Shown here one piece after another: positions 3,384 to 24,196 of a DNA stretch of 64,000 bases. The translations under genes were made by a program, and so were the position numbers. The notes beneath the pieces were generated by a model. It was given only the letters and a program-made list of their open reading frames with translations. It ran no database searches and was not told the DNA's origin. How positions within the stretch are numbered: position 1 is the stretch's first letter; each line of letters begins with the position of its first letter. Source of the DNA: Candidatus Levyibacteriota bacterium (GTDB lineage Bacteria > Patescibacteriota > Microgenomatia > Levybacterales > UBA12049); contig CAWBPM010000002.1 of the NCBI GenBank assembly GCA_963790825.1, forward strand, positions 295,159-359,158, read 5' to 3'.

Positions 3384-3992
3384 TTACAAGTTACCTGTTA
3401 AAAACGTCCTGGGATTTACCGGTATTCCATAGGCGTTGATCTGAAAATGTAAATGCGGACCTGTGGCGTTGCCTGTCTCTCCTTCATAGCCGATAATGGT
3501 ATTTGTGTCAACAGTTGTTCCAACCTTTGTTGTAACTGCCTCCATATGGCCGTACAAGCTCGTTACATGACTTCCGTTGTCAATAACGACATAATTCCCA
3601 TATCCCAGGCTATCTTCTCCCGCAAACGTCACAGTACCTTTAGCAAACGGGTGTATCGGATCTCCTTGAAGGCCTTGTGGGTTGGCAATATCAATACCGG
3701 TGTGGAGTATCTGGTATGGAGGGTCGGGTTGTCCAAATTCAAGCGTCACGATACCCGTTGCGGGCCACGCCATTGACTCAGTAAAATCTGAGGTTGTCCC
3801 ATCTAAATTATGGATCTCAACCGTGTTAGTCGTGAGGTTGAGTGTGACGAGTTTGTCAGAAACGACTTGGAATCCAAAATTTGTTAATACGACTATACCG
3901 ATAATGGGAAGGAGAAGAATAAAAATAAAAACACCGGCAACAATTTTAAATTCAAAGCGATTGGAAAAAAGAGCGAATGCAACATATGGCAT
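3384..3992 (-). CDS. M23 family metallopeptidase with N-terminal TM anchor (T4SS-associated cell-wall hydrolase candidate)
   Basis: GNYVVIDNGSHVTSLYGHM...GETGNATGPHLHFQI is the LytM/M23 signature. A TM helix lies near the N-terminus. Sits immediately downstream of VirB4. Confidence 0.75.
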   Translation of the reverse strand: MPYVAFALFSNRFEFKIVAGVFIFILLLPIIGIVVLTNFGFQVVSDKLVTLNLTTNTVEIHNLDGTTSDFTESMAWPATGIVTLEFGQPDPPYQILHTGIDIANPQGLQGDPIHPFAKGTVTFAGEDSLGYGNYVVIDNGSHVTSLYGHMEAVTTKVGTTVDTNTIIGYEGETGNATGPHLHFQINAYGIPVNPRTFLTGNL

Positions 3993-3998
3993 GGTGTT

Positions 3999-5864
3999 TT
4001 ATATGTATATCTCCTTCGGATCGGTAGTTAAAAGCGGATGTTCTTTCTCCGATGCTACGACTTTGACGGCTACGTGATTCTGATCGGCAATGATTAACGC
4101 TTCGCCCCGCTCACAGGTTAGGAGAAATTGTGATTCGTATTCACTCAAATGAAATTCCTGTGTGACCTGTTTAATTGTTGTAGTGTCCTGGCGCATGAGG
4201 ATACGAAGGGAAGACTGACTGGCAATGGCTCTCCCATAATCTTGTTTGAGGAAATCCTGTGCCTGTTGGGAAATAATGGTGACTCCCAGGTAATATTTCC
4301 GTGCTCGTCGGACTAATCCGGCAATAAATCTGGCTGATTCAACGTGTTCCAAAAGCATCCAACCTTCATCTATCACGAGCATACGTTTTTGTGGATGAGA
4401 TTTCACCTGTGACTCAACAAAATTAGCAATGACCACCATCATAATTTGCCTGAGAGATTCATGAAGATCTTTTATATTGAAAACGATAAGACGATTCTCA
4501 AGTTGTATATTTGTCTGTTCATCAAAAACTGTCGATAGTGATCCTTTGACAAACCGTTCCAATCTATTGCAAATATCTTTTTGCTTCATTGTTTTAAGAG
4601 TTTTATATAAGTCTTTGACTAATGGGAATTCCTGGTGTTTTGCATTCATTTTTTTCTTTCCATTCATTGTGAAGCCAAATTCTTTGTAGGTCAGAAGTAT
4701 TGCCTTATCCATTACCGCCCGCTCTTCGGGAGAGAGTCCTTCAACCATAAGGGAAATAATTTCGGTAAGATTCTGAATATGTTCAGATAAAACATTTTCA
4801 CCATTTTGTGTAATAGAAAAATCAAAAGGATTTATTTTCTCCTTACTGGTAGCGGATAGTTTAATATACGTTCCCCTTACAGATTTTGCCAGTTGTTTGT
4901 ATTCCCGCTCAGGATCAATAACAATCACCTTTGTCCCCTGCATGAGCTGTCTGAGGATTTCAACTTTTGTGGTGTAACTTTTACCGGATCCGGATTGAGC
5001 AAAGATAATGGCATTGGCATTATTGAGTGAAAACCTGTCGACAATAACCAGCGAGTTATTTGATTTGTTAATGCCATAGAGTATTCCTGCCTCCTGCACA
5101 AGTTCTGAAGAGACAAAAGGAAAGGTTAGTGCGCCGGAGGAGCTGTCTAGATTTCGCCTCTGAGAGAGCAGGTTTTCTCCCCTCGGGAGTACCGATTGTA
5201 ACCCTTCAATCTGCTGGTAGATTGCGGTTTTTATATAAAACAACCTGGTTGCCATAACCGTTTCTAAAATCTTGGTGATTTTATTAAGTTCCGATACAGA
5301 GTCGGCAGTAATAGTCATGTAAATGGAAAACTGAAACAGCTTTTCTTTTCCCCGTTGAATATTGTTTTTAAGCAGAATTGCCGAATCCAGGGGATCGGTA
5401 ATTTCAGAACCAACTAACCGTCCGTTTTTAATCATCGCCCGTTTTGTTGCTTCAAGCTCAGTTATTTTTCTGTTCAGTTTTGGCAGAGCAAGGAGTGGAT
5501 CAACTTTTTCAATATGATAGGAGATGTCGATGTTGTAGTTAAAGTTGATAAGCATACTAAGCCATCCCGTACCGGCAACATAGGGAAACCCGCTGATAAA
5601 CAGTGTACGGACAAACTTTTCTCCCATTGACAAGTAACTGCTATTTTCCATCAGTCCCGAGTACGAAATTAAATCAATCTGGTCCTGTTCGCCGAAATTA
5701 AACTGAAATGATTTTTTCAATAATTCTTTTTTCTTGTTTTTGTATTGCAACTTTTTTTGCAAGCGTTTCATTGTCCTTTTTAAATGAATTCGCTTTGCGT
5801 TTTGCAGCGGTTGTAATGAAATATCGGTTAGATTAAACATATGATGTTTTAAGCAGCATATCAA
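3999..5864 (-). CDS. virB4: VirB4/TrbE/CagE-family T4SS ATPase, C-terminal part of a split gene
   Basis: Walker A FAQSGSGKSYTTK and a Walker B-like MLVIDEGWMLL. The conserved N-domain stretch LFISGFPYVAGTGWLSMLINF is present. Overlaps the upstream ORF by 32 nt in another frame. Confidence 0.8.
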   Translation of the reverse strand: MICCLKHHMFNLTDISLQPLQNAKRIHLKRTMKRLQKKLQYKNKKKELLKKSFQFNFGEQDQIDLISYSGLMENSSYLSMGEKFVRTLFISGFPYVAGTGWLSMLINFNYNIDISYHIEKVDPLLALPKLNRKITELEATKRAMIKNGRLVGSEITDPLDSAILLKNNIQRGKEKLFQFSIYMTITADSVSELNKITKILETVMATRLFYIKTAIYQQIEGLQSVLPRGENLLSQRRNLDSSSGALTFPFVSSELVQEAGILYGINKSNNSLVIVDRFSLNNANAIIFAQSGSGKSYTTKVEILRQLMQGTKVIVIDPEREYKQLAKSVRGTYIKLSATSKEKINPFDFSITQNGENVLSEHIQNLTEIISLMVEGLSPEERAVMDKAILLTYKEFGFTMNGKKKMNAKHQEFPLVKDLYKTLKTMKQKDICNRLERFVKGSLSTVFDEQTNIQLENRLIVFNIKDLHESLRQIMMVVIANFVESQVKSHPQKRMLVIDEGWMLLEHVESARFIAGLVRRARKYYLGVTIISQQAQDFLKQDYGRAIASQSSLRILMRQDTTTIKQVTQEFHLSEYESQFLLTCERGEALIIADQNHVAVKVVASEKEHPLLTTDPKEIYI

Positions 5865-6450
5865 TTGTTTGTCCTTTTAACGCCTGTGTTTTTATTTGGT
5901 CGGGATTGTAAAAAGAATAAAACAAATCAAGAAGTTCCAGGCTTGTTAGCTGTCTTGCTTTCATACCGAGTTTCTCGATACCCTTGCTGACAATATCCCG
6001 TTCTAAATATAAATGCTCCTTAATTGTTGTAAAATCATTTTTTCCCGTGTTGTTAAAGGGAACAATAACGTAAAACCGGCGGGAAAGAATCTTGTTGCCG
6101 CGGACCATTTGTTTAATAAACGTACAATAAGTATCAATTTGCTCTCTGTATATTGCTTCTTTTTCCTCTGTTCCTTTGATTTGTATTTGCTGGGTGTAGG
6201 AATCAATATCCATTTCCCTGACCCTAATAAGGATTTGCAGAGAGGAAGGCAGAGAATTTAAAAAGTTCTGGAAGCTATCAATTATAACATCCTGTTCTTC
6301 CTCGGATTTTAATTCGAAGTTAATCGAAGAAGTTTCCAGAACCAGACGGTACTGGTTATTCGGTAATATCAGTATATTATCTTTTACTTCTTTAATCCGG
6401 ATTTGCCGGCGGGAGCCGACTTTCTTATTTGATTTGTTCAATGCCAACAT
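5833..6450 (-). CDS. Probable N-terminal segment of the VirB4-like ATPase (frameshift-separated) or a separate T4SS accessory protein
   Basis: 205-aa ORF ending inside the start of the VirB4 ORF (overlap 5833-5864, different frame). The combined length of ~815 aa matches full-length VirB4. Confidence 0.4.
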   Translation of the reverse strand: MLALNKSNKKVGSRRQIRIKEVKDNILILPNNQYRLVLETSSINFELKSEEEQDVIIDSFQNFLNSLPSSLQILIRVREMDIDSYTQQIQIKGTEEKEAIYREQIDTYCTFIKQMVRGNKILSRRFYVIVPFNNTGKNDFTTIKEHLYLERDIVSKGIEKLGMKARQLTSLELLDLFYSFYNPDQIKTQALKGQTIDMLLKTSYV

Positions 6451-6940
6451 TTAGCCCTCCTTTTTTGTTTGTTTTTATTGAGAATATATACTTAGGGCTG
6501 AGAATGAGCTGCTCCAAGCGGATAATATCAGAAAATACGATTTTTTTAAGGGAGATTTTTTCAACCTTTTTGTCTTTTGCCCTTTTAAGTAAGCGGAATT
6601 GCCTTTTCTCAGTTACCGGCAGATATATGTCCCGCCCGTACGCATCATTTTTGTTATACACATAATATTTCGGCCTGAGGTTATACCTAAGTAAAATACA
6701 AATCCAGCTTAGAACAACTTTCCCTTTTATTCTGAGAGCAAGGGTAAGACTGATAATCGCGGCAATGAGCGCGGCGGCAATTTTTACAATGCTTAGATGC
6801 AGCTTTGGCGGAAGGATGATAAATTCAACTGTTGACAGGAAAACCGGAATCATAAGCAAGATAATCTGTGTTAAATTGAGGCTTCCCGCAATCCTGTCCT
6901 CAACGGTTGTAATCTGCGCCGGAATAATTCTGGTTCTCAC
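6425..6940 (-). CDS. Small membrane protein, VirB3/TcpE-like T4SS component candidate
   Basis: 171 aa with two or three hydrophobic helices (IILLMIPVFLSTVEFIIL, IAAALIAAIISLTLAL). Position between VirB6-like and VirB4 matches VirB3 synteny. Confidence 0.3.
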   Translation of the reverse strand: MRTRIIPAQITTVEDRIAGSLNLTQIILLMIPVFLSTVEFIILPPKLHLSIVKIAAALIAAIISLTLALRIKGKVVLSWICILLRYNLRPKYYVYNKNDAYGRDIYLPVTEKRQFRLLKRAKDKKVEKISLKKIVFSDIIRLEQLILSPKYIFSIKTNKKGGLNVGIEQIK

Positions 6941-8235
6941 GCGTTAACGTACCTCCTTCGCCGTACTGCGTCATCGTCATCGGTTTGTTGTTGTTGTTGT
7001 TGCGACCCGGCATTTTCCCCCTTACGGCTTGTCATAGTATTAAGCATTTGTCCGCCCATATGGATTAAAGCACCCATTCGGGAGGTATAGAACATCATTT
7101 GGAATAACCAGGTGGGAATTTTAAGAAGGGTTAGAAATAGTCCTATGGCAATGACAATTGAGAGAAGTGAGCTGTCCGGATTATCGGGGATAGCCAGAAA
7201 GGAGGAAGCAAGTTGTATGACAACCACGTGCACAAAAATAATAAAGACGGTAACAAAGTATCCCTTAACCGCTGCCTCGGCAAAATCCGAGAACTTGGGG
7301 ACTGCCCACATGAGAAAGATAAAAGGAGAGAGGACGCCGGCCAGGACAACGAGAATAAGCCTGACAATATACATAAAAAGGAGGATAATTGCCACGATCA
7401 AAAAGATGATAAAAAAGATTAAAGTAATTATTGGTGTATGCCCGGTCAAAACACTCACAGGACTTATGGCATTGACCACCCATGCGTGGCTCAAACCCCC
7501 TGTTGTGTTAATCACCTCACTAACCAGTGCGTTGCAGGTGGTAATAACGTAGTCGCAAAGAAACAGGGAGACATTCGCGCCTAAAAATGCCAAACCGATA
7601 CGGGGAAGTAGGTGTTTAAGCTCTATCTCCTCAAAGCCAAAGGTTGAAGCCGACATAAAATGCAACCCTAAAAGAGCAACAACGAGAACAAATAACGAAT
7701 CAACAATTCCCAGGCTTACTGTCCAGAAGTGAAATACAACTGAGTTGCTAAGTAAACTTGGAGTTGTGGTTAGATAACCTATAATCGCATTCACAATTGG
7801 CTGTGTTGCGCTTTGCACTATGTTTTGCATCAGTCCTGTAATTGCGCTGATAAGAACCTGTGCAATGGCGCCCGTTGGACTTTGGGCTGCAATGGGAATC
7901 AAACTGGTTGCTAAGGAGGCAGCGGGTGAGACGGGGGCAATAAGGGCATTTTGCAAAAGAGAGACAACAACATTTGCCGAAAGAACAAGAGAAAGACCTA
8001 TGAGGGCATTTCTGATAGTTTTCCTGGCCTGCTCCAACGCTTCCGGATGGCCGGTTGAGGTGATGTATTGGTATCCTCCTTTAATTAAGAAGAGAATCGC
8101 TGATGCCGATGCTAAAAGAGTAAGAATCTGAAGGGTGTCACTTGTGTAGTTGGTAATGTCCGCTCCTGCCGCAAATACAGGCGGAACGACAAAAAGAAAG
8201 AGAGTAGCTCCATAAAGTAAGATCTTCTGCTTCAT
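6937..8235 (-). CDS. VirB6/TrbL-like polytopic membrane protein with an N-terminal pilin-like domain and a C-terminal polyQ/polyD tract
   Basis: 432 aa with more than six TM segments. Residues 1-110 (signal peptide plus two hydrophobic segments, GGYQYITSTGHPEALEQARKTIRNALIGLSLVL) are paralogous to the 113-aa pilin-like ORF upstream. C-terminus reads SQQQQQQTDDDD, encoded by a (ttg)6 repeat at 6985-7002. Confidence 0.45.
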   Translation of the reverse strand: MKQKILLYGATLFLFVVPPVFAAGADITNYTSDTLQILTLLASASAILFLIKGGYQYITSTGHPEALEQARKTIRNALIGLSLVLSANVVVSLLQNALIAPVSPAASLATSLIPIAAQSPTGAIAQVLISAITGLMQNIVQSATQPIVNAIIGYLTTTPSLLSNSVVFHFWTVSLGIVDSLFVLVVALLGLHFMSASTFGFEEIELKHLLPRIGLAFLGANVSLFLCDYVITTCNALVSEVINTTGGLSHAWVVNAISPVSVLTGHTPIITLIFFIIFLIVAIILLFMYIVRLILVVLAGVLSPFIFLMWAVPKFSDFAEAAVKGYFVTVFIIFVHVVVIQLASSFLAIPDNPDSSLLSIVIAIGLFLTLLKIPTWLFQMMFYTSRMGALIHMGGQMLNTMTSRKGENAGSQQQQQQTDDDDAVRRRRYVNA

Positions 8236-8247
8236 AACTTGTAATTC

Positions 8248-8589
8248 CTATTGACTTGCCTGCGCCGTACCGAATGCTGTCGTCGCAAGATCGGTTATAA
8301 TCGTTGATAATACAAACGCTCCCAAAACTATTGCCAGTCCGATTGCCGAGTAAAATATAGTTTTTTTGGACCGGTCTAACGATTCCGGATTACCGGATGA
8401 AGTGATATACCCCACTCCTCCCCAGACAAAAAAACCGGCTGCTACTAAACCTGCCAGTGTGACAAGAACCGAGATGATGCTTTGGATAAAGGTTTGAATC
8501 TTCGTAACGTCTGCTGAGGCGGCAAACGCCGGCGTCGCAGTTATAAGAGACGTAAGTACTAACGATGACAGAAAGATTAGTTTTCTCAT
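8248..8589 (-). CDS. VirB2/TrbC-like pilin candidate
   Basis: 113 aa with a signal peptide ending AFA-AS and two hydrophobic segments, the typical topology of conjugative pilins. Sits adjacent to the VirB6-like gene. Confidence 0.45.
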   Translation of the reverse strand: MRKLIFLSSLVLTSLITATPAFAASADVTKIQTFIQSIISVLVTLAGLVAAGFFVWGGVGYITSSGNPESLDRSKKTIFYSAIGLAIVLGAFVLSTIITDLATTAFGTAQASQ

Positions 8590-8860
8590 GTTCCTCCTTT
8601 CTTCTTAGGATTTTTCTTACAAAAAAGCTGCTCATGACGAGCAGCAGTAATTGAAAAGATTATACAGAAAAATATACGAAATGCAAGGGGATTTTTCATT
8701 ATTCGTTATAACCGGTCGTTTTTTTCTGATAAGATCAATAATCTAAAACGGAATATCCGCAGTCATATTTTCTTTTGTTGCAGAGTTTACTATAAAATGC
8801 TCTTACATTTATTTATAAAGGGTACTACTTTTTAAAAAGAGAGTTGAAATATTCTTAAAA

Positions 8861-11266
8861 GTGAACTACTCTAATAGGGGGTTAAGAATTTTACTGAGAT
8901 TTACAGTAGGAAATAAAATGAAAAGATATTTGCTTCAAAAATTGGCTCTTTTAGTGATCGGGTTTTTTATGTTCCCCTCTGCTTCTTTTGCTTATACAAC
9001 CAATATGAACGCCTCAGTTGTTTTAGGGCAAACAAGCTTTAGTACGAATTCTACAGGTACAACCTCCAGTACTCTTAACGGTCCTAGAAATCTTACTATT
9101 TGTAATGGTAAGTTAATTCTTGCTGATTTAACTAATTCTCGAGTACTTATTTGGAATTCTATACCAACACAGAACGGGCAAGCAGCAGATGTCGTAGTCG
9201 GACAACCTGACTTTACAAGTAACACGATAAATAATGGTGGTATTAGCGCTGCAACATTGAATAAGCCGTTAGCTGTCGGCTGCTTTGGTAACAAACTATT
9301 CATTGCCGATACAGAAAATAGTCGTGTTTTGATTTATAACTCGATTCCTACCTCAAATGGAGCCTCAGCAGATGTCGTAGTCGGACAACCTGATTTTTCT
9401 CATAACACTGTCAATAATGGCGGAATTGGAGCGAATACATTAAATAGACCACATGGAGTAACGTCGGATGGACAAAGATTATTTATTTTAGATGCCGATA
9501 ATCGACGACTACTCATATTCAATTCAATACCAACCACAAATAATGCATCGGCAGATACTGTGATAGGGCAGACAAATTTTACAAGTAATGGCATAAGTTG
9601 TTCGGCTAGCGGGTTTGATCATGAAGCACTCGGTGTATACGTATATGGAGGTAAAATTGTCGTTGCACAAACGTTTTTAACTAGCCTGGGCGCCTCTGGT
9701 CACAGAGTTTTAATTTTTAATAGCATTCCGACGAGCAACGGCGCTTCCGCTGATGTTGTCATTGGCCAGTCTAGTTTTACTGATTGTTCATCATATGCAG
9801 GCACTGCAGCGAATACCGTAGATAGGCCTTTTGGAGTCTTCGTAGATTCTAAAGGTAGACTCTATATTGGTGATAGAGGAAATCAAAGAGTTTTAGTTTT
9901 TAATACAATTCCCTCATCAAATAAAGCTTCCGCAGATTTGGTGATTGGTCAACCTAATTTTACTAGCAATAGTGTAAATCAAGGACAAGCTTCTCCTGGC
10001 GCAAATACTTTAAATGGTGCTGCTTATATTACGGGTACAGACACACAATTATTTATTACAGACAGTACGAACAATCGTGTCCTCATTTACAACGACATAA
10101 CGAGTAACCCATCAATGTCCCTCGGCAACAACATCTCTTCCTCACCTAATGGGAATAATAAATTGCGTTTCACCGGAAGTGCCTCTGTAGATTCTCCCTA
10201 CACCGTCAAAAGTGTCCAATATCAAATCAATGGGGGTGGTTGGAATAATGCAACACTGACAAACAGCAATGCACAAACAACCTCCTTTTACTTTGACTTC
10301 TCACCAACTGACAACAACTATTCTGGAGACGGGTATACCATCCAAGTACAAACGACAAGCAACAATCAGGATGTGAAGAGCAACGGCTTTTATTTCACCC
10401 CATTCAACTTGAATAGTCCAGGAAACAATGCATATACCACCAGTACCACACCCACTTTCTCTTTCTCCATCAACCAAGGGAGATTCACAGACCTCTCCAG
10501 TAACCTCGATCACTTCCAAGTGCAAGTACAAAAGATTAATGATGTCAATGGTAACCATTTGAGTAGTAGCTGGCAAACTTACATTGACAACATCCCCGTC
10601 AGTTTCCAGAATAATAAGAACAATTCACAGAATCTGCAACAAAACAGCAGCAATACATATGAAACGACTAAATTCCTTGCTACCTACAGTAGTGACAACA
10701 GCAACATCAGTGTTTATGCCAAACCAATTGACAGTACAGGCAACACCACTGGAAATACCTCATTTGACCAGGGTGGAACAGTCCTGTCTTCTGGAACTTA
10801 CCAATGGCAGGTAGTTGCTATTGATAAATCAGGACACCAACAAACAACAGGCAGTAATACCCTTCGAGTCAATAGTCTGATTACCAATACAACCGGAGCA
10901 ACAATTCACTTTCCCCTTTCTATTCTCTATCTTTCAACTCTTGGCAACGTGAATCTCTCAACGGATTATTCCCAAGGAATCAAATCAACCTATACTATCT
11001 ATAATACTGCACCAACCTTCTACGGGATTGCCTATGCAGGAGCAACAGTCACCCTTACTCTAACAGACAGTGTATGTGTCACATCGTCCTCAAGCACAAC
11101 ACTATGCACAAAAACCTATACTACAACTGCAAATCCTGATTCGAGATTTGGGATCAATATCCCAACGGGAGATTTAAATAGAAACAAAACGTACACTGTT
11201 AACATGAATGTGACACAGAACGGGAACTATAATGAACTGCCTGAGTTTTCCCTCAAAGTACTCTAA
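8861..11266 (+). CDS. Large secreted NHL-repeat (beta-propeller) protein with C-terminal Ig/fibronectin-like Ser/Thr/Asn-rich domains
   Basis: Signal peptide, then at least seven repeats of the form NSRVLI(W/Y)NSIPTxNGxxADVVVGQPDF(T/S)xN (NHL-type blades), then beta-rich low-complexity domains. Transcribed divergently from the T4SS operon. Confidence 0.7.
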   Translation: MNYSNRGLRILLRFTVGNKMKRYLLQKLALLVIGFFMFPSASFAYTTNMNASVVLGQTSFSTNSTGTTSSTLNGPRNLTICNGKLILADLTNSRVLIWNSIPTQNGQAADVVVGQPDFTSNTINNGGISAATLNKPLAVGCFGNKLFIADTENSRVLIYNSIPTSNGASADVVVGQPDFSHNTVNNGGIGANTLNRPHGVTSDGQRLFILDADNRRLLIFNSIPTTNNASADTVIGQTNFTSNGISCSASGFDHEALGVYVYGGKIVVAQTFLTSLGASGHRVLIFNSIPTSNGASADVVIGQSSFTDCSSYAGTAANTVDRPFGVFVDSKGRLYIGDRGNQRVLVFNTIPSSNKASADLVIGQPNFTSNSVNQGQASPGANTLNGAAYITGTDTQLFITDSTNNRVLIYNDITSNPSMSLGNNISSSPNGNNKLRFTGSASVDSPYTVKSVQYQINGGGWNNATLTNSNAQTTSFYFDFSPTDNNYSGDGYTIQVQTTSNNQDVKSNGFYFTPFNLNSPGNNAYTTSTTPTFSFSINQGRFTDLSSNLDHFQVQVQKINDVNGNHLSSSWQTYIDNIPVSFQNNKNNSQNLQQNSSNTYETTKFLATYSSDNSNISVYAKPIDSTGNTTGNTSFDQGGTVLSSGTYQWQVVAIDKSGHQQTTGSNTLRVNSLITNTTGATIHFPLSILYLSTLGNVNLSTDYSQGIKSTYTIYNTAPTFYGIAYAGATVTLTLTDSVCVTSSSSTTLCTKTYTTTANPDSRFGINIPTGDLNRNKTYTVNMNVTQNGNYNELPEFSLKVL

Positions 11267-15603: not shown

Positions 15604-15660
15604 TTAAGCTATCCACGAATGAATAAACTGTTACTTTAAATATTTACTCTAGGAGTATAA

Positions 15661-16311: not shown

Positions 16312-16371
16312 AAAACGAGTATACCAAAATTCGTTGTATCTTTCATTTAATTAAAAACAGTGCCAATATAA

Positions 16372-16411
16372 GGAGCCCCTTCGGCTCCTCTTTTCAAAGG
16401 TCAAGATGAAC
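16372..16411. repeat. Inter-cassette element E2 (hairpin GGAGCC-N5-GGCTCC plus TCTTTTCAAAGGTCAAGATGAAC)
   Basis: See E1. Confidence 0.6.
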
Positions 16412-16483
16412 GTGTATTTGTTTAAAATACGATTTGGCAATAGTTTAGCAAAGAGCAGTATTTAGTAAATTGGGTTATATAAA

Positions 16484-17011
16484 TTATTTGCCTGTAGGTT
16501 TGGATACTGAATCCTGAAGTTTGGCAATTGCAGCTCTCATTATAAGATGAGGCCTAGTGGAATATTGCTCTTCTAATCTATTTTCAATCTCTTCATCTGG
16601 AACTGAATGCTCCAATCCCCAGCCAGAAAATGTAATGTCCACCTCGAAATTGAATACTTGCTTAAGTCTCTCAGGCATTTTGGGATACTCATAATGCTTC
16701 ACACTCCAAGTATCTGAAATAACATCGCTTCCATTCATATTACATTCAGTATGACGGATAGTCTGCGATTGAGGGGTATACCACTGTGAGAGTTGACTGA
16801 GAGCTAGTTCATTACCAGTATCTCCTAATAACTCAATTGCGTGTAGTTGGCTTTCTATCTTTCGTTCTTTTCGGGAAAGCTTCCTAGTGATTCCGTTCCA
16901 GATAATTTTACCTTGTCCAATACGTATAAGATCTTGGACTTCTTGTGGAGCCGCAGTAAATTCCGGGTCTTCTTTATGAAATATTCTGCCAATTCTTTCA
17001 ACTAATGGCAT
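16484..17011 (-). CDS. Hypothetical protein
   Basis: 175-aa ORF with good coding appearance. No motif recognised. Confidence 0.4.
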   Translation of the reverse strand: MPLVERIGRIFHKEDPEFTAAPQEVQDLIRIGQGKIIWNGITRKLSRKERKIESQLHAIELLGDTGNELALSQLSQWYTPQSQTIRHTECNMNGSDVISDTWSVKHYEYPKMPERLKQVFNFEVDITFSGWGLEHSVPDEEIENRLEEQYSTRPHLIMRAAIAKLQDSVSKPTGK

Positions 17012-17244
17012 ATTTGATAGGAATATACTCCTTATGAGGCTGGCTTGTCAAATATACCGGCTATAAAAAGGGCTTAGCCCCTCTTCCGCAAGGGTTTCCG
17101 GCTTTGCTTCCAATAAATTAGGGCTTTCAGCCCGTCACCCTTGCATTATTCACCCCCTCTTTTGCTTCGCACATATCAGAAAGCAGGCCGCAGGCTGCTT
17201 TCTGGAATATATATTTTCCAAATATGAACAGCCGGAAGGGGGTG

Positions 17245-17350
17245 AAACACAAAAATATGCAATTACTTACAAAACAGTTACGGGAAACTATCCAGCCGTT
17301 ATATTCCACAGAGACGGAAGCCGATCCGGATGTGAAGTGTAAATTTTTTC
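17245..17350 (+). pseudogene. Truncated paralog (5-prime fragment) of the DUF2958 gene at 20213-20524
   Basis: Translates to MQLLTKQLRETIQPLYSTETEADPDVKCKFFLPG, against MNKQMMLLTKQLTQRLPKLYEQENNTDPMVICKFFLP. Preceded by the same ~55-nt hairpin-containing leader (17171-17228 versus 20140-20197). The reading frame terminates after ~35 codons. Confidence 0.4.
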
Positions 17351-17500
17351 TTCCCGGAAGAATTATTGAGAGGGATCAATAGGGAAGAATAATAAGCTTG
17401 CAGGTGACTCAAGTAGAGTTTTAATATAGAATAGATATTTCAGATGTACATTATGTACCTTATTGACAAAACGTAATAAATGGTATATAATAGCTGCATT

Positions 17501-17800
17501 ATGACAAGTATATCTACTATTAATGTTACCAAGGCCCGGGATAACTTGGCTGAAATATTGGGGAGAGTAAGATTTGGTGAAGAAACAATCACAATAGAAA
17601 AAAAAGGGAAACCTTACGCAGTAATCATAAGCCCTAAAGAGCTTAAAAGATATCAAGAAATAGCTAAAAAGGCATTTTCTACTACTGTGGCTAGCATTCG
17701 AGCAAAAAATACTGCTGTAAATGAAAATGAACTTATGGAAGATGTAACTAAAGCTGTTGAAGAAACTCGACAAGAACGATATGAACAACGAGGAAAATAA
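17501..17800 (+). CDS. Phd/YefM-family antitoxin
   Basis: TINVTKARDNLAEILGRV...ITIEKKGKPYAVIISPKELKRYQE is the Phd/YefM fold signature. Precedes and overlaps a PIN-domain gene. Confidence 0.7.
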   Translation: MTSISTINVTKARDNLAEILGRVRFGEETITIEKKGKPYAVIISPKELKRYQEIAKKAFSTTVASIRAKNTAVNENELMEDVTKAVEETRQERYEQRGK

Positions 17801-18236
17801 TCTTCCAAGAGTTACCATTGACACAAACCTTGTTATTAGCGGTACTATTTCTCCAAACAGTGTTCCAAGCCAACTTATCACATTCTGGATTAACGGCGGC
17901 TTCAACTGGATTCAAACTCAAGAAACGTTTAACGAAATAAAAGAAGTATTTACCAGAAAAAATATAAAAATGAAATATCATCTAAATCCTAAAGAAATAC
18001 AAGCGTTTCTTGATAATTTATCTATAGGAGCAGAATTCGTAAAACCAATTCCAATAGAATCTCTTCCAATTCATTCTCGAGACGCAAAAGATAATATTTT
18101 ACTATCTTGTACGTTAGGTGGGAATTGCGATTTTCTTATTACTGGTGATGAGGATTTATTAGTCCTTAATGGAGAGAAAAAGTTGGGAAAGTTACAAATT
18201 ATAAAAGTAGTTGACTTTTTGCAAAGAAAAAAATAA
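17757..18236 (+). CDS. PIN-domain ribonuclease toxin (VapC-like)
   Basis: N-terminal VTIDTNLVISG and C-terminal CDFLITGDEDLL are the acidic motifs of the PIN fold. The start may be the internal Met at 17781. Confidence 0.65.
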   Translation: MKKLDKNDMNNEENNLPRVTIDTNLVISGTISPNSVPSQLITFWINGGFNWIQTQETFNEIKEVFTRKNIKMKYHLNPKEIQAFLDNLSIGAEFVKPIPIESLPIHSRDAKDNILLSCTLGGNCDFLITGDEDLLVLNGEKKLGKLQIIKVVDFLQRKK

Positions 18237-18561
18237 GTCAGAGTTTCCTTTCCTTCCAAGTACTGGATGCTTCAATACGAATCCTAATCATTATACGAAC
18301 CAGAGGTAATCAAAAATATAAAACACATATAAAAACGTCTTCGGTTTTTCTATGACTTGGGTTTCCGGCTTCGCCTCCAATGAATTCTTTAGTAATTAAA
18401 ATAATTTTATTGGGAATAGCAATCTATATCATCTGGTTATTATCCGGGATATTCTTCTAATCACATTATATATCTTTCATAACCCATACAACCATAGAAG
18501 GGGCTTAGCCCCTCTAATGCAAGGGTTTCCGGCTTACACGGTCTTCAAAATACACTCACTT

Positions 18562-18924
18562 TCAAGATTGATCTTCGGGGGTCTCATATCGATTGGGTTT
18601 ACCGCGTGTAGGCTCCGGGGTATATCCACCATATAAACCTGACTGCTTTGCTCTCTCTGTCATAATCCTTGCACCGGTTGATTCAATCATTCGGTCTAAT
18701 TGTTCTTTTGTATAAGATCCCAAGTAATAATCAACGTGGCCTGCGCTTGAAAGGTAACCAGGACCATGTTCATGTTCTTCTTGGCATTTTGCAGGGGTGG
18801 GGGTTTCCTGACGAATTGTTTGATGAAAGACGGATCTAAAACGTTCTTTAATTCCTCCCAATATTCCAAATGACCCTGACTCTTTGCCCATACGTATATT
18901 ATACGCCTGATGGTCAAATTTCAT
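18562..18924 (-). CDS. Hypothetical protein
   Basis: 120-aa ORF. The neighbouring 18972-19199 ORF shares a GHV...Y..G(Y/S)T stretch and may be a truncated paralog. Confidence 0.3.
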   Translation of the reverse strand: MKFDHQAYNIRMGKESGSFGILGGIKERFRSVFHQTIRQETPTPAKCQEEHEHGPGYLSSAGHVDYYLGSYTKEQLDRMIESTGARIMTERAKQSGLYGGYTPEPTRGKPNRYETPEDQS

Positions 18925-19377
18925 TAAGAAGGGGATGCTTATGGGGATTGGTTTTTTATTTAAAGATAAATTTAACTTTGTTCTGAAGGATTACTGTCAT
19001 TTGATTGGTTATCTGTATAGCCTAGTCTGTATAAATCACCCCTAACGTGGCCTGGTCCACTATAATTTGAAGGTGAATATCCGCTATATTGATTACGCGG
19101 GCTAGGAGGTGTATATTTTGTTTCTGCCTTAAATGCCAGGTAAAATAAATGTCTAACTTTCCCAATAACCCTTTGGAACATCGGTGATTCTTTACTCACA
19201 ACTGTATTATACTCCCGGGAGTCAAATTTTTTAAAGTCACAAACGAGTATTCTCCTCTAAAAACCCATTCAGTTTCTCTGCACAAGAATCAAGATGAATA
19301 TCCTTTTTATCAACAATTTTGTGCAGACAATTATTTGTTTAGTTTTGCTAATCAGTTGGCTAAGTATAATAATTGAA

Positions 19378-19947
19378 TTATTTTGTAGTTGCAGGGACAA
19401 GTGGATGTCTAAAAATAGTCTCTGCGTTTAACATGTGCCCCGCAGGCGTTCTGCCTGTCAGATACATTCTTACAGTTTCCGGCCAATCTATTCTTTTGGG
19501 GAAACGTGAATCGTCAACTTTGTCGAAAAAGTGAGTATAACGTTTTGCGAGATTTGGATGTAACCGAGTGGGTAAGTAACTTAATCCTGAAGTTACCTTG
19601 ATAGTATCATCATATTGGTAAGCGGCTATACCTCTCATCTTAGTTTCTAGATCAACAAGATTACCTGATTCATCGCACTGGACCACCATATCAACCAGTC
19701 TGGTAGAAAATCCAAACACTTGACTTTTTCCCCATTTAATTCCTGGTCGAATTCTAACATTTAGCTCATATAATCCATTACCTCTGCCATATTTACGAGA
19801 GTATGCTTCAAGTAAAAATTCCCCTTGTTGGGTGTAATACAGGTGAGGATCTTCAAAAGTACCCATAGAAGTACTTTCTGCTTGAAGATCTACGTAATTA
19901 AATGACTCTCTTAATCTAGGCATAAATATCTGGGTATTATAGCACAT
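19378..19947 (-). CDS. Hypothetical protein
   Basis: 189-aa ORF with good coding appearance. No motif recognised. Confidence 0.45.
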   Translation of the reverse strand: MCYNTQIFMPRLRESFNYVDLQAESTSMGTFEDPHLYYTQQGEFLLEAYSRKYGRGNGLYELNVRIRPGIKWGKSQVFGFSTRLVDMVVQCDESGNLVDLETKMRGIAAYQYDDTIKVTSGLSYLPTRLHPNLAKRYTHFFDKVDDSRFPKRIDWPETVRMYLTGRTPAGHMLNAETIFRHPLVPATTK

Positions 19948-20147
19948 CTTAATTCAAAGTGATTGGGCTGGGGTGATAGGTACCAGTTGAGGAGTTAATG
20001 TAGAAGCATACTCCAATGGTGTTTTGTAGTCAAGGGCTTGTACCGGCTATAAAAAGGGCTGCGCCCCTCTTTTGCAAGGGTCGAGATAAACGAAGTCGTT
20101 GCTTCGCCCTTGCAAAATTCACCTTGCATATTAGTCTTCGGATATCA

Positions 20148-20171
20148 GAAAGCAGGCCGCAGGCTGCTTTC
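20148..20171 (+). promoter_or_regulatory. Perfect 8-bp-stem hairpin (GAAAGCAG-N8-CTGCTTTC) in the DUF2958 gene leader. An identical copy lies at 17179-17202.
   Basis: Seen directly in the sequence. Followed by an AT-rich stretch and the start codon ~40 nt downstream. Function could be promoter, operator or terminator. Confidence 0.4.
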
Positions 20172-20212
20172 TGGAATATATATTTTCCAAAAATATTAAC
20201 AGCTGAACGGAG

Positions 20213-20524
20213 GTGAATAAACAAATGATGCTACTTACTAAACAATTGACACAGAGACTACCAAAGCTATATGAGCAGGAAAACAATACTGATCCGATGG
20301 TTATCTGTAAGTTCTTTTTACCGATGACCAAATGGACTTGGTACGCCATAGAATTTGACGGAAAAGATACGTTTTTTGGCTACGTTGTCGGAGATTATCC
20401 GGAGCTTGGTTACTTTACTCTGTCAGAGCTAAAAGATATTGAGGGCCCATACGGGCTAAAGGTTGAGCGGGATATGTATTTCGACCCTCAACCGCTCTCA
20501 AAGATACAAGCGGGGGAAAGATAA
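20213..20524 (+). CDS. DUF2958-family protein (commonly carried on conjugative elements)
   Basis: 103 aa. KFFLPMTKWTWYAIEFDGKDTFFGYVVGDYPELGYFTLSEL resembles the DUF2958 family seen on plasmids and ICEs (from memory, not a search). Confidence 0.5.
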   Translation: MNKQMMLLTKQLTQRLPKLYEQENNTDPMVICKFFLPMTKWTWYAIEFDGKDTFFGYVVGDYPELGYFTLSELKDIEGPYGLKVERDMYFDPQPLSKIQAGER

Positions 20525-20581: not shown

Positions 20582-21382
20582 TTATTCTACTTTTTCCCAA
20601 ACATCAGGGGTTTTAGCATTAAGTATTCTCTCATTCCAGGATAAATATAGAGGGAATGGTTCATCAAATTGTTTTTCAAATAGTGCTTTTGCAAAGTAAT
20701 ACAGGTGTTTCTTTAACTTTTCTCTTGGGCAAATAAATAAAACTGCGGGGAACGCTTGCCCGTTTGCGTTGTCCTCCCAATTACCTCCCTCAACATATTG
20801 CATGTATGTTAATATCCGTGAACGAAGTATTCCGGCAGAAGCATAGTCTCTGAATAATTCAAGGAAATATCTTCTGGTTTTCTCTTTTGTTTTTACTGAT
20901 ATATAAGCACTTGGCAGGGGAGTAGGAAAATACTCATATTGCAGCAATTGGCTTTCAGTAAAAAAACGGATCTCTTCATCTTTTTTCTTCTTTGCTAAAA
21001 AGAAAAGATAAACATCTGCTAAGTCTAGACAGTAAGAAATAAAACTTTCTGTCCGACTCTTTTCTTTGTACACTTTACCCAGTGCTTCAACGTCGCAGTC
21101 CTTTTCCTGTTTTAGGATTTGTATTCCTTTAGTACCCAGAAAATAGACAGCCGGCTTTGTCCGGTTTTTAAATGAATCAGGCAGATAATATCTGTGAATA
21201 TACTTATTATCTTTTAAGTCTTTAAGCCAGAGTTGTATTCTTTTGGGGTTTTTATGATTGAATAATATTTGCAGTTGGTTAGTATTTAGGAATCTGAATT
21301 TATATATATATTTTAATATTTGTTTTTCTTTGCCGGTTATTTTAACTTCTGTTTTGTTCTCTGTTTTTATTATTTTTTTCAT
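20582..21382 (-). CDS. Replication-relaxation (Replic_Relax, PF13814-like) family wHTH protein
   Basis: N-terminal EKQILKYIYKFRFLNTNQLQILF matches the wHTH start typical of Replic_Relax proteins. Lies immediately downstream of the VirD4-like gene, as in Gram-positive conjugative elements. Confidence 0.45.
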   Translation of the reverse strand: MKKIIKTENKTEVKITGKEKQILKYIYKFRFLNTNQLQILFNHKNPKRIQLWLKDLKDNKYIHRYYLPDSFKNRTKPAVYFLGTKGIQILKQEKDCDVEALGKVYKEKSRTESFISYCLDLADVYLFFLAKKKKDEEIRFFTESQLLQYEYFPTPLPSAYISVKTKEKTRRYFLELFRDYASAGILRSRILTYMQYVEGGNWEDNANGQAFPAVLFICPREKLKKHLYYFAKALFEKQFDEPFPLYLSWNERILNAKTPDVWEKVE

Positions 21383-21490
21383 GCTGGGTTTATATATTTA
21401 TGCCTCTTATATTTATATAAGATATAATAGGAAGAACTTTTTTGTAATTTAGCTTCATTTTAAGCATATTTTTGTAGGTACTCGCACCTA

Positions 21491-24196
21491 CTATTTTATC
21501 TGCTTCGTATCATCGGGAAGTGACCCTGTTATTTTATTTTTTGTCTCCGTAGTTTCTTTCTGTCTTGCTGCTTGCTGCTCTTTATTGACCGGTTTTTTCA
21601 GGTAGACAATTGCCCAGTTATTTCTCGAAGATGCAATGAGTTTCTCCATCTTTTTACTATCTCTTTTGACGGGCATATAGATTGTCTCACCGGAAAAAGG
21701 TTCTTCGGATTCTATGGCTGAAATTTTAATATAGAATCTGTAACGGGGAAGACTCATTATTTCGCCCTTTACTAAGTAGGGCGCAAACTGGTTAAGCATT
21801 AAATCTTCATCAATATAATTGCCGGACCGGAATGAGATAACTGTGGTAACGTTTGCCAGGATAATATTGGTAACATCCCTGTCTTTTTGCTGGGAGGTTG
21901 ACTGCTCGGCAATAATTAAAGGCATCCTGTACTTTCTGCCCTCTGTTATCATTTTTGTAAATGACTGGGTTGCAAAATTTTGGAATTCGTCAACATATAC
22001 ATAAAATGTTTTCCTCTTGCTCTCCGGTATATATGCTCTTTTTAATGCAGCTTGCTGGAGTTTGGTCATGATTGTTGTTCCCATGAGCCGTGAGGAGTCT
22101 TCACCTAATTTTTGTGAGAAATTACAAATGAGAATTTTACCGCCGTTTATAATTTCATCAAAATTAATAGTGGATTTCTCCTGTTCTAAAATTCTTTTAG
22201 CAGTAGGAGAGCGGAGAAACCTTCCAACCTTGGCTGTAATCCCCTGAGTCATTTTTACTATCTGATAATCTCCGGCTTTGCCGAATTCATATTTCCAGAA
22301 ATCTACTAAATCCTCATCCGTCAGTTTTGACACAACCTGTTTGCGAAAGGTAGGATTAGTCATGATTTTATTGATGGTAAATAATGTTGCGCCCGGTACA
22401 GTAAACGCTGTGTAAATAGTATTTCTTAAAATATATTCAATTCTGTGAGCATTAGTACTCTCATCTTTTGAAAATACTTTTCTGAAAAGCGACACTACAC
22501 CTTCTGCAACTACCTCTTTTTCCAGCTCCGCTTCGTCTTCATCGAGTCCGGGTGTCAACTCCATGACGTTTATTCCGATCGGATACTTTAAGTCTATCGG
22601 GTTAATATATATGAGATCGTCTTTCCGGCTTGTCGGAATAGAAGCCACTAAATCTTCTGCTACATCTCCATGCGGATCAATAAATGCTAAACCGCGGCCT
22701 TCTTCAATATCATGTTTTGCCATGGAAAACATTAAGGTAGTTTTACCTGAACCGGTTCGGCCTAAAATATACATATGCGTTTGCCGCTCTTCTTCGGTTA
22801 ATCCGATCGGCGTTGTTACTCCCGCATAATTATTTTCTCCAAAAACAGTATCCAGCTCCGTACCGTTTTTTAGTGTTATTGGGGCGGGTAATTCTTTTGA
22901 ATGTGCTTTTACAATGTTTTCCGTTTGCGTAACATACTTAAAAGGAAAATGATATAGGTCTGCTATCTCAGACGCGGAATATAATGAGGAACTTGCATTG
23001 TTAATTAAAGATAACATTCGTTTTCGAAACACAAATAGTTGTACCCGATCCGAGACATATGGAATTCCATATGTTTTGAAGAAGGACTGATATTTAGGAA
23101 CGTTATACATAGCAAGGGAGGAATGAAAACCTTTAACCCTCTGTGCAACTTCAGACTTTTCCTTCATAACAACTAGTAACCTGATTGATCCTTCAAACAA
23201 CTCCTGATCAATTTTTGTTTTGATTGACTGGATCACTTCCTGCTCAAAGCTACTTAGTATCCTAGCCGGCCGAAGGTGCTGCATTTGTATAACTTGCTGA
23301 TACTGGTATTGCCCGGAAATATGTATCGACTGTGTGTTTGAATGCATCAGCTCAGTTATTGCCCACTGCAGATTATTTCCGATTGCCAATATCATTTTAA
23401 GTAATACTTTTAGAAGGAATAACAATATTTTTACAACTAAAGGTGCTCGGGGTTTACTTAAATACCTTAGTATATCTTCATTGTTGAGGATCATCTGAGA
23501 AAGAATATCCGCTTCTTTGATTTTGGTTCCGGAAACTACTACTTGCAAAGAGATTAATTCTCCGGGTTTTAACTGCGTCATCATACCGGTGATATACGCA
23601 ACCGGATCATGTTCCTGCAGAGTGGATTGTTTTTGCAGAGGAAAAGCAAAATGTTTTCTTAATTGAAACCCGGCAACTTTTATATGCAATTTATTATTAG
23701 TTTTATCAACAGTGGGAATATATTCACTAGTTGTTTTCACCAGGACATGGGGAAGGTAGGAGAGAATCTCCCGTTTTATGTTCTCTTTTTCTTCCGGTGT
23801 TGTCCTGACAATGAAACGGATTCCCAGCTCTCTGCTTGAAACAATTTCGAAAGAAAGAATCGTTTTCCTGCCCAGTAATTTATCTGTAAACGAATCCCGC
23901 TTTGATAAGCCGTGTATCATTGAAAAAAATTCCTGCGTGGTATATGCAGACTTTTCGCTTATTGTCGGAGGGGTAATTTCAAGCAGAACCGATTCTTCAT
24001 TCATTAGTTTTCTGAAATTGAAATACCAGCGGGCAATTAGTATTACCAGCACACATACGACAAGAAAAAGAATAAAAGGAAAGGATGAGAAAGGAGAGTG
24101 ATGAGCAAAGTTAATAAACTCATCTTTTAAATGAGGAAGAGAGGCAGTTAACCGGCTAAGTATATATCCAGCTTCCCAATGATGCCAGTCATTCAT
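21491..24196 (-). CDS. virD4: Type IV coupling protein (VirD4/TraG/TraD family) with a long N-terminal membrane-anchored extension
   Basis: Walker A ILGRTGSGKTTLMF, Walker B FYVYVDEFQNFAT and an N-terminal TM helix. 901 aa. Confidence 0.8.
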   Translation of the reverse strand: MNDWHHWEAGYILSRLTASLPHLKDEFINFAHHSPFSSFPFILFLVVCVLVILIARWYFNFRKLMNEESVLLEITPPTISEKSAYTTQEFFSMIHGLSKRDSFTDKLLGRKTILSFEIVSSRELGIRFIVRTTPEEKENIKREILSYLPHVLVKTTSEYIPTVDKTNNKLHIKVAGFQLRKHFAFPLQKQSTLQEHDPVAYITGMMTQLKPGELISLQVVVSGTKIKEADILSQMILNNEDILRYLSKPRAPLVVKILLFLLKVLLKMILAIGNNLQWAITELMHSNTQSIHISGQYQYQQVIQMQHLRPARILSSFEQEVIQSIKTKIDQELFEGSIRLLVVMKEKSEVAQRVKGFHSSLAMYNVPKYQSFFKTYGIPYVSDRVQLFVFRKRMLSLINNASSSLYSASEIADLYHFPFKYVTQTENIVKAHSKELPAPITLKNGTELDTVFGENNYAGVTTPIGLTEEERQTHMYILGRTGSGKTTLMFSMAKHDIEEGRGLAFIDPHGDVAEDLVASIPTSRKDDLIYINPIDLKYPIGINVMELTPGLDEDEAELEKEVVAEGVVSLFRKVFSKDESTNAHRIEYILRNTIYTAFTVPGATLFTINKIMTNPTFRKQVVSKLTDEDLVDFWKYEFGKAGDYQIVKMTQGITAKVGRFLRSPTAKRILEQEKSTINFDEIINGGKILICNFSQKLGEDSSRLMGTTIMTKLQQAALKRAYIPESKRKTFYVYVDEFQNFATQSFTKMITEGRKYRMPLIIAEQSTSQQKDRDVTNIILANVTTVISFRSGNYIDEDLMLNQFAPYLVKGEIMSLPRYRFYIKISAIESEEPFSGETIYMPVKRDSKKMEKLIASSRNNWAIVYLKKPVNKEQQAARQKETTETKNKITGSLPDDTKQIK

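Follow-up and report, generated by a model that had tools for sequence, protein, structure and literature searches.

Type IV secretion systems (T4SS) of the Patescibacteria have been described as a clade of VirB4 ATPases accompanied by TrsD, PrgI, VirB6, VirB2-like pilins and M23-type hydrolases, the coupling protein being encoded at a distance and relaxases seldom present (Quinonero-Coronel et al. 2025, PMC12102498). The published loci are described as chromosomal, often dnaA-proximal and for the most part relaxase-less, and co-option has been inferred for them; the relaxases counted in the phylum number 109, of which 58 are MOBC and 39 lie near a coupling protein gene (PMC12102498). The text of that paper mentions no integrase, recombinase or tRNA. 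The function of these systems is debated, and the current literature regards them as relaxase-less, essential for epibiosis and probably co-opted for that lifestyle (PMC12857230). Here we analyse a 64,000-nucleotide stretch of Candidatus Levyibacteriota bacterium (contig CAWBPM010000002.1, positions 295,159 to 359,158), referred to in full as the window, which holds a secretion block (3384-8589) and a coupling-protein block (20582-24196). An initial annotation of the window gave this gene content, these coordinates and the common strand of the two blocks, and all three are borne out by the open reading frame (ORF) listing and the profile searches: all secretion, coupling-protein and Replic_Relax genes lie on the minus strand. 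We propose, with a probability of about 0.7, that the window contains an integrase-less member of a family of tRNA-integrating integrative and conjugative elements (ICEs) of Patescibacteria (Microgenomatia), located in an island that accreted at a tRNA-Arg gene.

The proposal rests in part on the gene order of relatives. A search with the Replic_Relax protein, the candidate relaxase of the window, yielded 44 protein clusters and 307 metagenome stretches, and 80 loci were fetched from the latter. The survey covers 84 relaxase-anchored loci, scored by tblastn with the window proteins and by ARAGORN, each count being given over the loci with enough sequence; five further contexts, from different Microgenomatia (L095-L099), were anchored on VirB4. 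Profiles were taken from Pfam and NCBIfam, the PDB was searched by sequence and Foldseek by structure, and tRNA genes were called with ARAGORN and Rfam. Over the 84 loci the recurrent order is tRNA, large serine recombinase, coupling protein, relaxase, DUF2958 or ArdC, variable cargo and a six-gene secretion block, itself ordered VirB2-like pilin, VirB6-pilin fusion, PrgI/VirB3, TrsD, VirB4 and M23 hydrolase. In 30 of 42 loci the coupling protein gene immediately precedes that of the relaxase. Further upstream, on the opposite strand, 20 of 26 loci have a serine recombinase gene, which abuts a tRNA gene in 16 of the 20; at least nine tRNA identities occur next to the units. The gene downstream of the relaxase gene encodes DUF2958 at 17 and ArdC at 5 of the 49 loci with enough downstream sequence, and the pilin/VirB6 block follows on the same strand, at most 10 kb downstream, in 10 of 25 loci (gaps of 1.1-9.6 kb), six tRNA types standing beside the loci that have it. 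In the closest relaxase contexts the coupling protein is immediately upstream in every case, mostly with an opposite-strand large serine recombinase and a downstream DUF2958/ArdC-N gene. The comparison of gene order with Patescibacteria relatives that the initial annotation had suggested finds the modules of the window in the same order in relatives that have a tRNA-abutting large serine recombinase.

The recombinases of these relatives have Resolvase/Recombinase/Zn_ribbon domains, and the 3' end of the recombinase gene overlaps that of the tRNA gene in L005 (tRNA-Lys), L008 (tRNA-Gln), L012 and L095 (both tRNA-Gly). Complete and compact copies occur in L064, L095 and L098, with a core of about 12 kb in the first two. 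The L064 copy, verified with Pfam, runs from tRNA-Glu through Resolvase, coupling protein, Replic_Relax and a HEPN-like gene to the six-gene block, about 11.8 kb from tRNA to M23. Among the five VirB4-anchored contexts, L095 and L098 are complete units, L099 has copper-resistance cargo upstream, and L096 and L097 have defence genes upstream of the secretion block and no mobilisation genes within reach. At least 13 loci agree in the order and strand of the coupling protein, relaxase and pilin-to-M23 genes, the smallest gap being 1.1 kb.

The relatives also carry signs of mobility beyond gene order. Their cargo includes toxin-antitoxin, restriction-modification, CBASS-like and metal-resistance genes, typical of mobile elements, and close relatives with VirB4 proteins 78-83% identical have unrelated sequence on either side of the secretion block. 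Among Levy-, Davies-, Woyke- and Gottesmanbacteria the identity of VirB4 is 75-83%, whereas the neighbour genes in common with the window (NAGPA-like and BacA; L002 20146-21207, L099 6318-7079) are about 50% identical, a difference that hints at recent horizontal spread of the block.

One metagenome-assembled genome of the Levyibacteriota, DAIDHL01, holds two copies of the six-gene block in unrelated contexts (the L001 and L002 contigs), with VirB4 proteins 83% and 78% identical to that of the window. In L001 the last 207 nt of the recombinase gene are repeated 6.4 kb away (14771-14980 versus 21194-21400; 80% amino-acid identity). The repeats, just downstream of the secretion block, bracket the recombinase gene, a 92-aa ORF, Replic_Relax and a GmrSD-HEPN gene, without a coupling protein; the bracketed set could be a small mobilisable-type unit, with the repeats as its attachment (att) sites. 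An 811-aa ORF in L001 and an 899-aa ORF in L002 were considered as coupling proteins and rejected, as they are GmrSD-HEPN and DUF1800 proteins instead.

The mobilisation module of the window begins with a VirD4-type coupling protein of 901 aa (21491-24196, minus strand), which matches Pfam TrwB_AAD_bind and TraG-D_C above cut-off, and also DUF87. It has a long N-terminal membrane region with transmembrane segments and DUF8128 (precomputed annotation), a Walker A motif GRTGSGKT and a Walker B motif VYVDEF. Its best PDB sequence matches are DotL and TrwB, both weak (E about 1e-4), and it matches NCBIfam SXT_TraD with E 7e-14. The gene directly downstream (20582-21382, minus strand) encodes the Replic_Relax protein, which scores 41.7 bits against PF13814 (cut-off 25.3). 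The initial annotation listed this protein and nevertheless recognised no relaxase; we disagree, for PF13814 is the family that CONJscan recognises as MOBC relaxases (PMC5357655). MOBC relaxases are kin of PD-(D/E)XK restriction endonucleases with an N-terminal winged helix, their prototype being TraX of pAD1 (PMC12857230, PMC6736028), and their catalytic domain, of PD-(D/E)XK type, has a DEE metal-binding motif and an essential Tyr (PMC6736028). The window protein has an N-terminal winged helix-turn-helix followed by a 160-residue C-terminal alpha/beta domain, whose order, alpha-beta-beta-beta-alpha-beta, is compatible with the PD-(D/E)XK fold. PF13814 is present in 42 of the 44 homologue clusters, and hhalign relates the protein to the TraX-like protein of pTEF1 with 71% probability (E 3.8e-5). 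We therefore regard it, at the level of the family, as a candidate MOBC relaxase.

It might instead be a replication initiator or a plain winged-helix regulator, which would leave the locus truly without a relaxase. The name of the Pfam family covers 'replication-relaxation', NCBIfam gives no match, and tblastn against 72,556 plasmids found no homologue. In an alignment of 35 sequences the DEE motif of MOBC relaxases could not be mapped onto the protein, and residue 158 is a Ser, whereas some family members show the Asp expected there. The same alignment shows a residue that is always Glu or Asp (E175), one that is mostly acidic (D179) and three invariant tyrosines (Y105, Y172 and Y196). A confident AlphaFold model built from 35 homologues (pLDDT 89) finds full-length structural matches in Foldseek only to the restriction endonuclease FokI, weakly (E 1e-3). 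These residues and matches, the C-terminal domain past the winged helix and the tight pairing with a VirD4-type coupling protein all speak against a mere initiator or regulator. So does the gene order, which is that of TraW, oriT2 and TraX in pAD1-type plasmids: in pTEF1, a pAD1-like plasmid typed MOBC, a coupling protein gene, an intergenic region and a 'replication-relaxation family protein' gene follow one another in the same way. We hold a non-relaxase to be improbable.

The 108-nt spacer between the two genes (21383-21490, minus strand) is a candidate origin of transfer (oriT) or operator. Its layout is conserved across 24 aligned loci. It comprises a stem-loop, GTAGGTgcgaGTACCTAC (21474-21491), whose final base is also the final base of the coupling-protein stop codon; about 20 nt past it a conserved motif, ATGAAGCTAA (21449-21458), the window version of TTGAAGCTAA; and an AT-rich palindrome, CTTATATAAATATAAG (21406-21421), just ahead of the relaxase ribosome-binding site, all on the minus strand. 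Pairing within the stem amounts to 90.6% over the alignment, with compensatory changes in 8 of 8 pairs; none of 500 shuffles matched this, and slid controls gave 32-47%. Upstream of the relaxase gene, at a distance of at most 200 nt, 21 loci have the TTGAAGCTAA motif, whereas the other 0.9 Mb contain 22 copies. An intrinsic terminator is not favoured, since the stem-loop is followed on the coding strand by an A-run, not a T-run, and is therefore no canonical one. An inverted repeat and a conserved sequence beside a relaxase gene are oriT-like, and we predict that the spacer contains the oriT.

The secretion block lies downstream on the same strand. Profile searches of the kind suggested in the initial annotation support VirB4 and VirD4 above cut-off, and VirB6 through its T4SS_pilin match, its TrbL match being below cut-off. 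The VirB2-like pilin (8248-8589) matches Pfam T4SS_pilin (E 3.5e-11) and TrbC (E 8e-10), both above cut-off, and falls just short of the NCBIfam model Mbov_0395, a pilin-like protein of Mycoplasma ICEs (39.1 bits, cut-off 40). Next comes a VirB6-like polytopic protein with an N-terminal VirB2-like pilin domain (6937-8235), in which T4SS_pilin covers residues 27-94 (E 1e-9) and TrbL_4 residues 123-401 (E 7e-5, below cut-off); it has about eight transmembrane-like segments, and its L096 homologue is annotated TrbL_3. The small PrgI/VirB3-like membrane protein (6425-6940; Pfam PrgI E 2.6e-4, below cut-off) has transmembrane-like segments at residues 17-37 and 40-60 and the identical position in all relatives, with PrgI annotated in L098 and L099. 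The PrgI and VirB6 (TrbL) identities, both with matches below the Pfam cut-offs, thus lean partly on conserved position and membrane topology.

VirB4 is encoded in two ORFs. The larger (3999-5864) corresponds to the C-terminal two thirds of a full VirB4 and scores 352.5 bits (cut-off 325) against NCBIfam NF045971, 'VirB4-like conjugal transfer ATPase, CD1110 family', over model positions 144-733. Its best solved relative is PDB 4ag5, a VirB4 (E 9e-45); Pfam P-loop_TraG and AAA_10 match as well, the Walker A motif is AQSGSGKS, and the called gene start is 8 codons later than a TTG start. The smaller, a TrsD-like protein of 205 aa (5833-6450), overlaps virB4 by 32 nt and is the equivalent of the VirB4 N-terminal domain, with a match to NF045971 positions 11-172 (E 4e-13) and a weak one to TrsD NF041427 (E 2.5e-4). 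We ruled out a frameshift as the source of the split, because the split is conserved: two ORFs overlapping in different frames also occur in three Levyibacteriota loci (L001-L003) and in L064, and in L095-L099 TrsD and VirB4 are called as two separate adjacent genes in the same place, the proteins at the TrsD position being annotated PF26593 TraC-like. The split agrees with the published TrsD plus VirB4 pattern. The final gene of the conserved block, colinear in L001-3, L054, L064, L073 and L095-99, encodes an M23 peptidoglycan hydrolase (3384-3992; Pfam Peptidase_M23 E 3e-26) with an N-terminal membrane anchor (transmembrane-like segment 12-46), which presumably opens the wall in the manner of VirB1.

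As the initial annotation had noted, no VirB8, VirB9, VirB10 or VirB11 was found among the ORFs scanned across the 64-kb window (the main ORFs to 27 kb, and beyond 27 kb all ORFs of at least 90 aa), and the window holds no replication genes. The annotators' suggestion of a minimal monoderm-type T4SS is supported, the system being MPF-FATA-related. Their guess at a host from the candidate phyla radiation (CPR) also agrees with our searches: the closest VirB4 and relaxase relatives come nearly all from Patescibacteria/Microgenomates records, and those of the secretion block from Levy-, Davies-, Woyke- and Gottesmanbacteria. The contig that contains the window measures 751 kb.

The region upstream of the coupling protein gene departs from that of the relatives. 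A tRNA-Arg (tct) gene at 29836-29909 (minus strand), found by ARAGORN and Rfam, is the candidate integration site. Its position and orientation relative to the coupling protein gene are those of the tRNAs of relatives, but it lies 5.6 kb off and no recombinase gene stands between; the interval holds two BrnT/BrnA pairs, a PLD-like gene, a helix-turn-helix gene and membrane ORFs. That the window lacks a recombinase had already been remarked. Pfam on the ORFs named above, and tblastn with the recombinases of four relatives (E up to 10), find none in the 64 kb apart from short 3'-end relics, and we rejected a hidden one. The recombinase is absent here and present in 20 of 26 relatives, and we therefore consider the window a decayed member of the family and not an autonomous ICE.

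The relics occupy the place where relatives carry the recombinase. Two of them (25468-25527 and 26466-26590, minus strand) resemble a tRNA 3' end joined to the 3' end of a serine recombinase gene, and bracket a BrnT/BrnA pair. Two parts of the second have matches: 26530-26590 aligns with the L001 recombinase gene at its 3' end (E 5e-6), and 26476-26534 with the 3' flank of a tRNA-Leu gene of the window (E 2e-6); the first is a weaker copy, with weak tblastn matches to recombinase C-termini. A similar relic (47600-47702) adjoins the tRNA-Leu gene itself (47703-47788), and copies of the motif lie at 44769 and 45154. The relics at these three places suggest several past integrations, with the recombinase genes deleted later.

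Sequences resembling the end of tRNA-Arg recur at the far side of the secretion block. The last 10 nt of the tRNA gene and the 22 nt beyond it are repeated directly at 498-529 (plus strand; 27 of 32 positions identical to 29814-29845), and none of 100 Markov shuffles reached 25 of 32. This repeat contains the terminal 9-mer of the tRNA, CAGGGGTAC, of which the window has five copies (520, 1700, 25514, 29836 and 46286, all minus strand) where 0.14 are expected. The copies are intergenic and lie at the edges of small cassettes: a 319-aa ORF of no known function, an AbiE pair, a BrnT/A pair and a Fic-HTH/PLD set. The AbiEi/AbiEii toxin-antitoxin cassette (1905-3168, minus strand; Pfam AbiEii E 2e-23) lies between two direct repeats of 91 nt (1700-1790 and 3280-3370), each with tRNA-Arg-3'-like sequence at its end. 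The second copy lies 14-104 nt past the M23 stop codon and includes, at 3280-3288 (96-104 nt past it), a one-mismatch copy of CAGGGGTAC. On the simplest reading, cassettes were added one after another at tRNA-Arg, and the ICE core extends from about 3.37 to 25.5 kb; the repeat at 498-529 is a candidate for the distal att scar, at the outer limit of the accreted island. By GC content the island is not set apart from the rest of the window.

Several observations weigh against reading the window as one ICE. To the missing recombinase, the unmapped DEE motif, S158 and the absence of plasmid homologues is added the matter of the element ends. On the plus strand, 498-522 matches the oriT-like consensus (ATTTTGAGGCTAATTTTTAAG against AATTTTGAAGCTAATTTnTAAAAA) better than the window's own 21449-21458 (minus strand) does, in inverted orientation, so that the repeat may be an att scar or a relic of another oriT; and neither blastn-short nor a 7-9-mer scan gave a convincing attR in the compact relatives. 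On both counts the ends proposed for the element are tentative. The distance between the modules is a further point. The initial annotation had put about 9 kb of toxin-antitoxin and stress cargo and an NHL-repeat gene between the blocks; cargo of these types is indeed there. The whole gap measures 11,992 nt, and these 12 kb exceed the gap of every relative. Lastly, at 15 of 25 relaxase loci the 10 kb examined contain no secretion block, and in L002, L096 and L097 the secretion block has no coupling protein or relaxase in reach.

These distances raise the alternative that two unrelated neighbours lie side by side: a resident T4SS, and a decayed integrative and mobilisable element (IME; recombinase, coupling protein and relaxase) that used the T4SS in trans, the intervening 12 kb being due to island accretion at tRNA-Arg. 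The blocks that stand alone and the relaxase loci without a block do imply that separate IME and T4SS entities exist too. L005 has metal-resistance cargo for 10 kb and no secretion block, L001 and L046 have a recombinase and a relaxase and no coupling protein, and class 8 of the streptococcal IMEs is exactly such a unit. The tRNA-end-like cores at 25514, 3280 and other cassette boundaries, which suggest stepwise accretion, would suit this history as well. Chance adjacency is nevertheless hard to invoke for an identical order and strand in at least 13 loci beside six tRNAs, some at gaps as small as 1.1 kb, and we consider two independent neighbours quite unlikely.

A second alternative starts from the literature. 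The T4SS could be a co-opted, chromosomal host-interaction machine, used for uptake from or exchange with the bacterial host of the epibiont, an idea put forward for Saccharibacteria; in that case the coupling protein and Replic_Relax would be leftovers or have another role, in DNA secretion or replication. Most published Patescibacteria T4SS clusters have no relaxase (PMC12102498, PMC12857230). Southlakia epibionticum, the single Patescibacterium studied by genetics, is reported to need its T4SS genes for epibiotic growth but not its coupling protein (Wang 2023, cited in PMC12102498), and the open-access literature searched contains no demonstration of conjugation in Patescibacteria; both points also weigh against an ICE. 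In the window the integrase is gone and all six secretion genes are intact, L003 retains a 51-residue relaxase fragment upstream of an intact secretion block, and the lone blocks just mentioned (L096, L097 and L002) would fit a machine kept for its own sake. Such a machine does not readily explain why the coupling protein and relaxase of the window are full length, 45-66% identical to those of the surveyed relatives and always paired, or why the sequence ahead of the relaxase gene shows both conservation and compensatory changes. Nor does it explain a block that travels with recombinase, coupling protein and relaxase beside six tRNA types, surrounded by cargo of the mobile-element type. We regard this alternative as unlikely. 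Co-option could also have followed an ICE stage by domestication and is compatible with the ICE reading; this reading and its three alternatives are not mutually exclusive.

The initial annotation had likewise raised DNA uptake or cell-cell interaction as a possible use in place of classical conjugation. The locus does not support this, as it has a full mobilisation module (a coupling protein, a relaxase-family protein, a covarying hairpin with its motif, and DUF2958) and relatives with a tRNA-abutting recombinase. A full canonical set with a relaxase just outside the window would, according to the same annotation, make the locus an ordinary ICE. With its coupling protein, its relaxase-family protein and its recombinase-bearing relatives it is by that standard of ICE type, although its integrase is missing.

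From gene content and arrangement we infer how a complete member of this family would work. The recombinase would excise the element, and the relaxase would bind through its winged helix and nick at the hairpin/TTGAAGCTAA site that immediately precedes its gene. From the coupling protein the DNA would go to a channel of VirB4, TrsD, VirB3 and VirB6, while the M23 enzyme would open the wall and the pilin would contact the recipient. In the window all the transfer genes are intact, and the recombinase gene would have been deleted, with toxin-antitoxin cassettes in its place; having lost it, the element presumably cannot excise on its own. Either it would be a permanent part of the chromosome, its secretion block perhaps becoming domesticated, or it would rely on a recombinase encoded elsewhere.

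The region from relaxase to pilin gene (8590-20212, mixed strands) is variable cargo, characterised by profile and repeat searches, and its genes have no homologues in the other fetched loci. Next to the relaxase gene and convergent with it is the DUF2958 gene (20213-20524, plus strand; Pfam E 5e-18), by inference a leading-region or anti-restriction-type accessory gene. Its start and an upstream hairpin are duplicated (17063-17355 versus 20049-20260; 53 nt, 98% identical). The truncated second copy (17257-17355, plus strand) ends after about 33 codons, some 125 nt ahead of a Phd/PIN toxin-antitoxin pair (17480-18236, plus strand) that probably disrupted it. Two families of 42-47-nt repeats with small GC hairpins (15557-15603, 16365-16411 and 19253-19299; 17063-17104, 18494-18535 and 20049-20090) border small genes at 15661-16311, 16484-17011, 18562-18924 and 19378-19947, which look like cassettes with common untranslated regions. 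Further cargo comprises an NHL-repeat surface protein (8861-11266, plus strand; profile search), a toxin-antitoxin pair of Doc (14500-14892) and a MazE-like protein (14898-15146), and a KGG stress protein (15304-15525). A SAM riboswitch (RF00162, 14145-14249, minus strand; 49.7 bits, gathering score 44.4) lies directly upstream of two tandem paralogous ORFs on the minus strand, 13651-14073 (140 aa) and 13211-13612 (133 aa), which have no Pfam match and no homologue in the 99 fetched loci. The two ORFs make up a putative SAM-regulated pair, carried as mobile-element cargo by a bacterium of reduced genome.

By itself the window brings no new kind of system but a decayed example from an ordinary class of mobile elements. 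Taken with its relatives, it shows that the six-gene, pilin-bearing system recurs as the pore module of tRNA-integrated elements together with a coupling protein, a MOBC-family protein and a serine recombinase, which suggests that secretion systems of Patescibacteria can belong to conjugative elements. An origin in ICEs would offer a route to the domestication of such systems. A broader conjecture, which we put forward tentatively and rate as rather less probable than its contrary, is that the highly conserved, pilus-bearing T4SS of Microgenomatia, and maybe of Patescibacteria at large, serves above all to transfer very small ICEs of a large and undescribed family. Their core would measure about 12 kb; they would insert at tRNA genes by means of a serine recombinase, rely on MOBC-like relaxases under-detected by standard profiles, and actively carry genes for defence, toxin-antitoxin pairs and metal resistance from one CPR lineage to another. 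The systems seen as relaxase-less and co-opted, and this one without an integrase too, would be stages of decay or domestication. The predicted oriT (hairpin and TTGAAGCTAA), the candidate tRNA att sites and the compact elements of about 12 kb, whose ends are undefined, provide handles for testing conjugation, and the compact elements are possible genetic tools. The secretion system has already been published. The architecture of the element appears not to be spelled out in the open-access literature searched, in which we found nothing further on a CPR relaxase with a serine recombinase or on conjugative elements of Patescibacteria.

Set beside known systems, the window resembles the Patescibacteria-clade T4SS in its MPF-FATA-related VirB4 with a separate TrsD, its PrgI/VirB3, VirB6 and VirB2-like pilins, its monoderm setting, its M23-type hydrolase downstream, its lack of VirB8/9/10/11 and a coupling protein not adjacent to virB4. 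In contrast to that system, its block is colinear with genes for a coupling protein and a MOBC-family protein, to which relatives add the tRNA-abutting serine recombinase. The pAD1/pTEF1 plasmids of Enterococcus faecalis have the same succession of coupling protein, intergenic site and a Replic_Relax protein, some 260 aa long, that has an N-terminal winged helix. The intergenic region of pTEF1, however, is about 700 nt long and has an extra small ORF, compared with 108 nt in the window; its protein is about 20% identical to that of the window, with the DEE/Y181 residues of TraX not confidently alignable; and its system is plasmid-borne, with a PrgB-type adhesin and no VirB2 pilin.

Streptococcal IMEs of class 8 (Coluzzi et al. 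2017, PMC5357655) likewise combine, in compact form, VirD4, a MobC/PF13814 relaxase and a serine integrase. They are without mating-pore genes of their own, whereas many members of the family of the window carry the six-gene pore, and the window has no integrase. ICEs of the Clostridioides CTn2 type and of Mycoplasma have monoderm hosts and small gene sets in common with it. The VirB4 of the window is above the CD1110-family cut-off, which links it to the former; it also strongly matches the VirB4 model of Mycoplasma ICEs, and the pilin resembles Mbov_0395. Unlike in either, VirB4 is split in the window, and the relaxase type differs; Mycoplasma ICEs, moreover, use a DDE transposase and not a serine recombinase at a tRNA. 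The window thus belongs, in decayed form, to known kinds: an ICE, a MOBC relaxase at the level of the family, a VirD4 coupling protein and an MPF-FATA-like pore.

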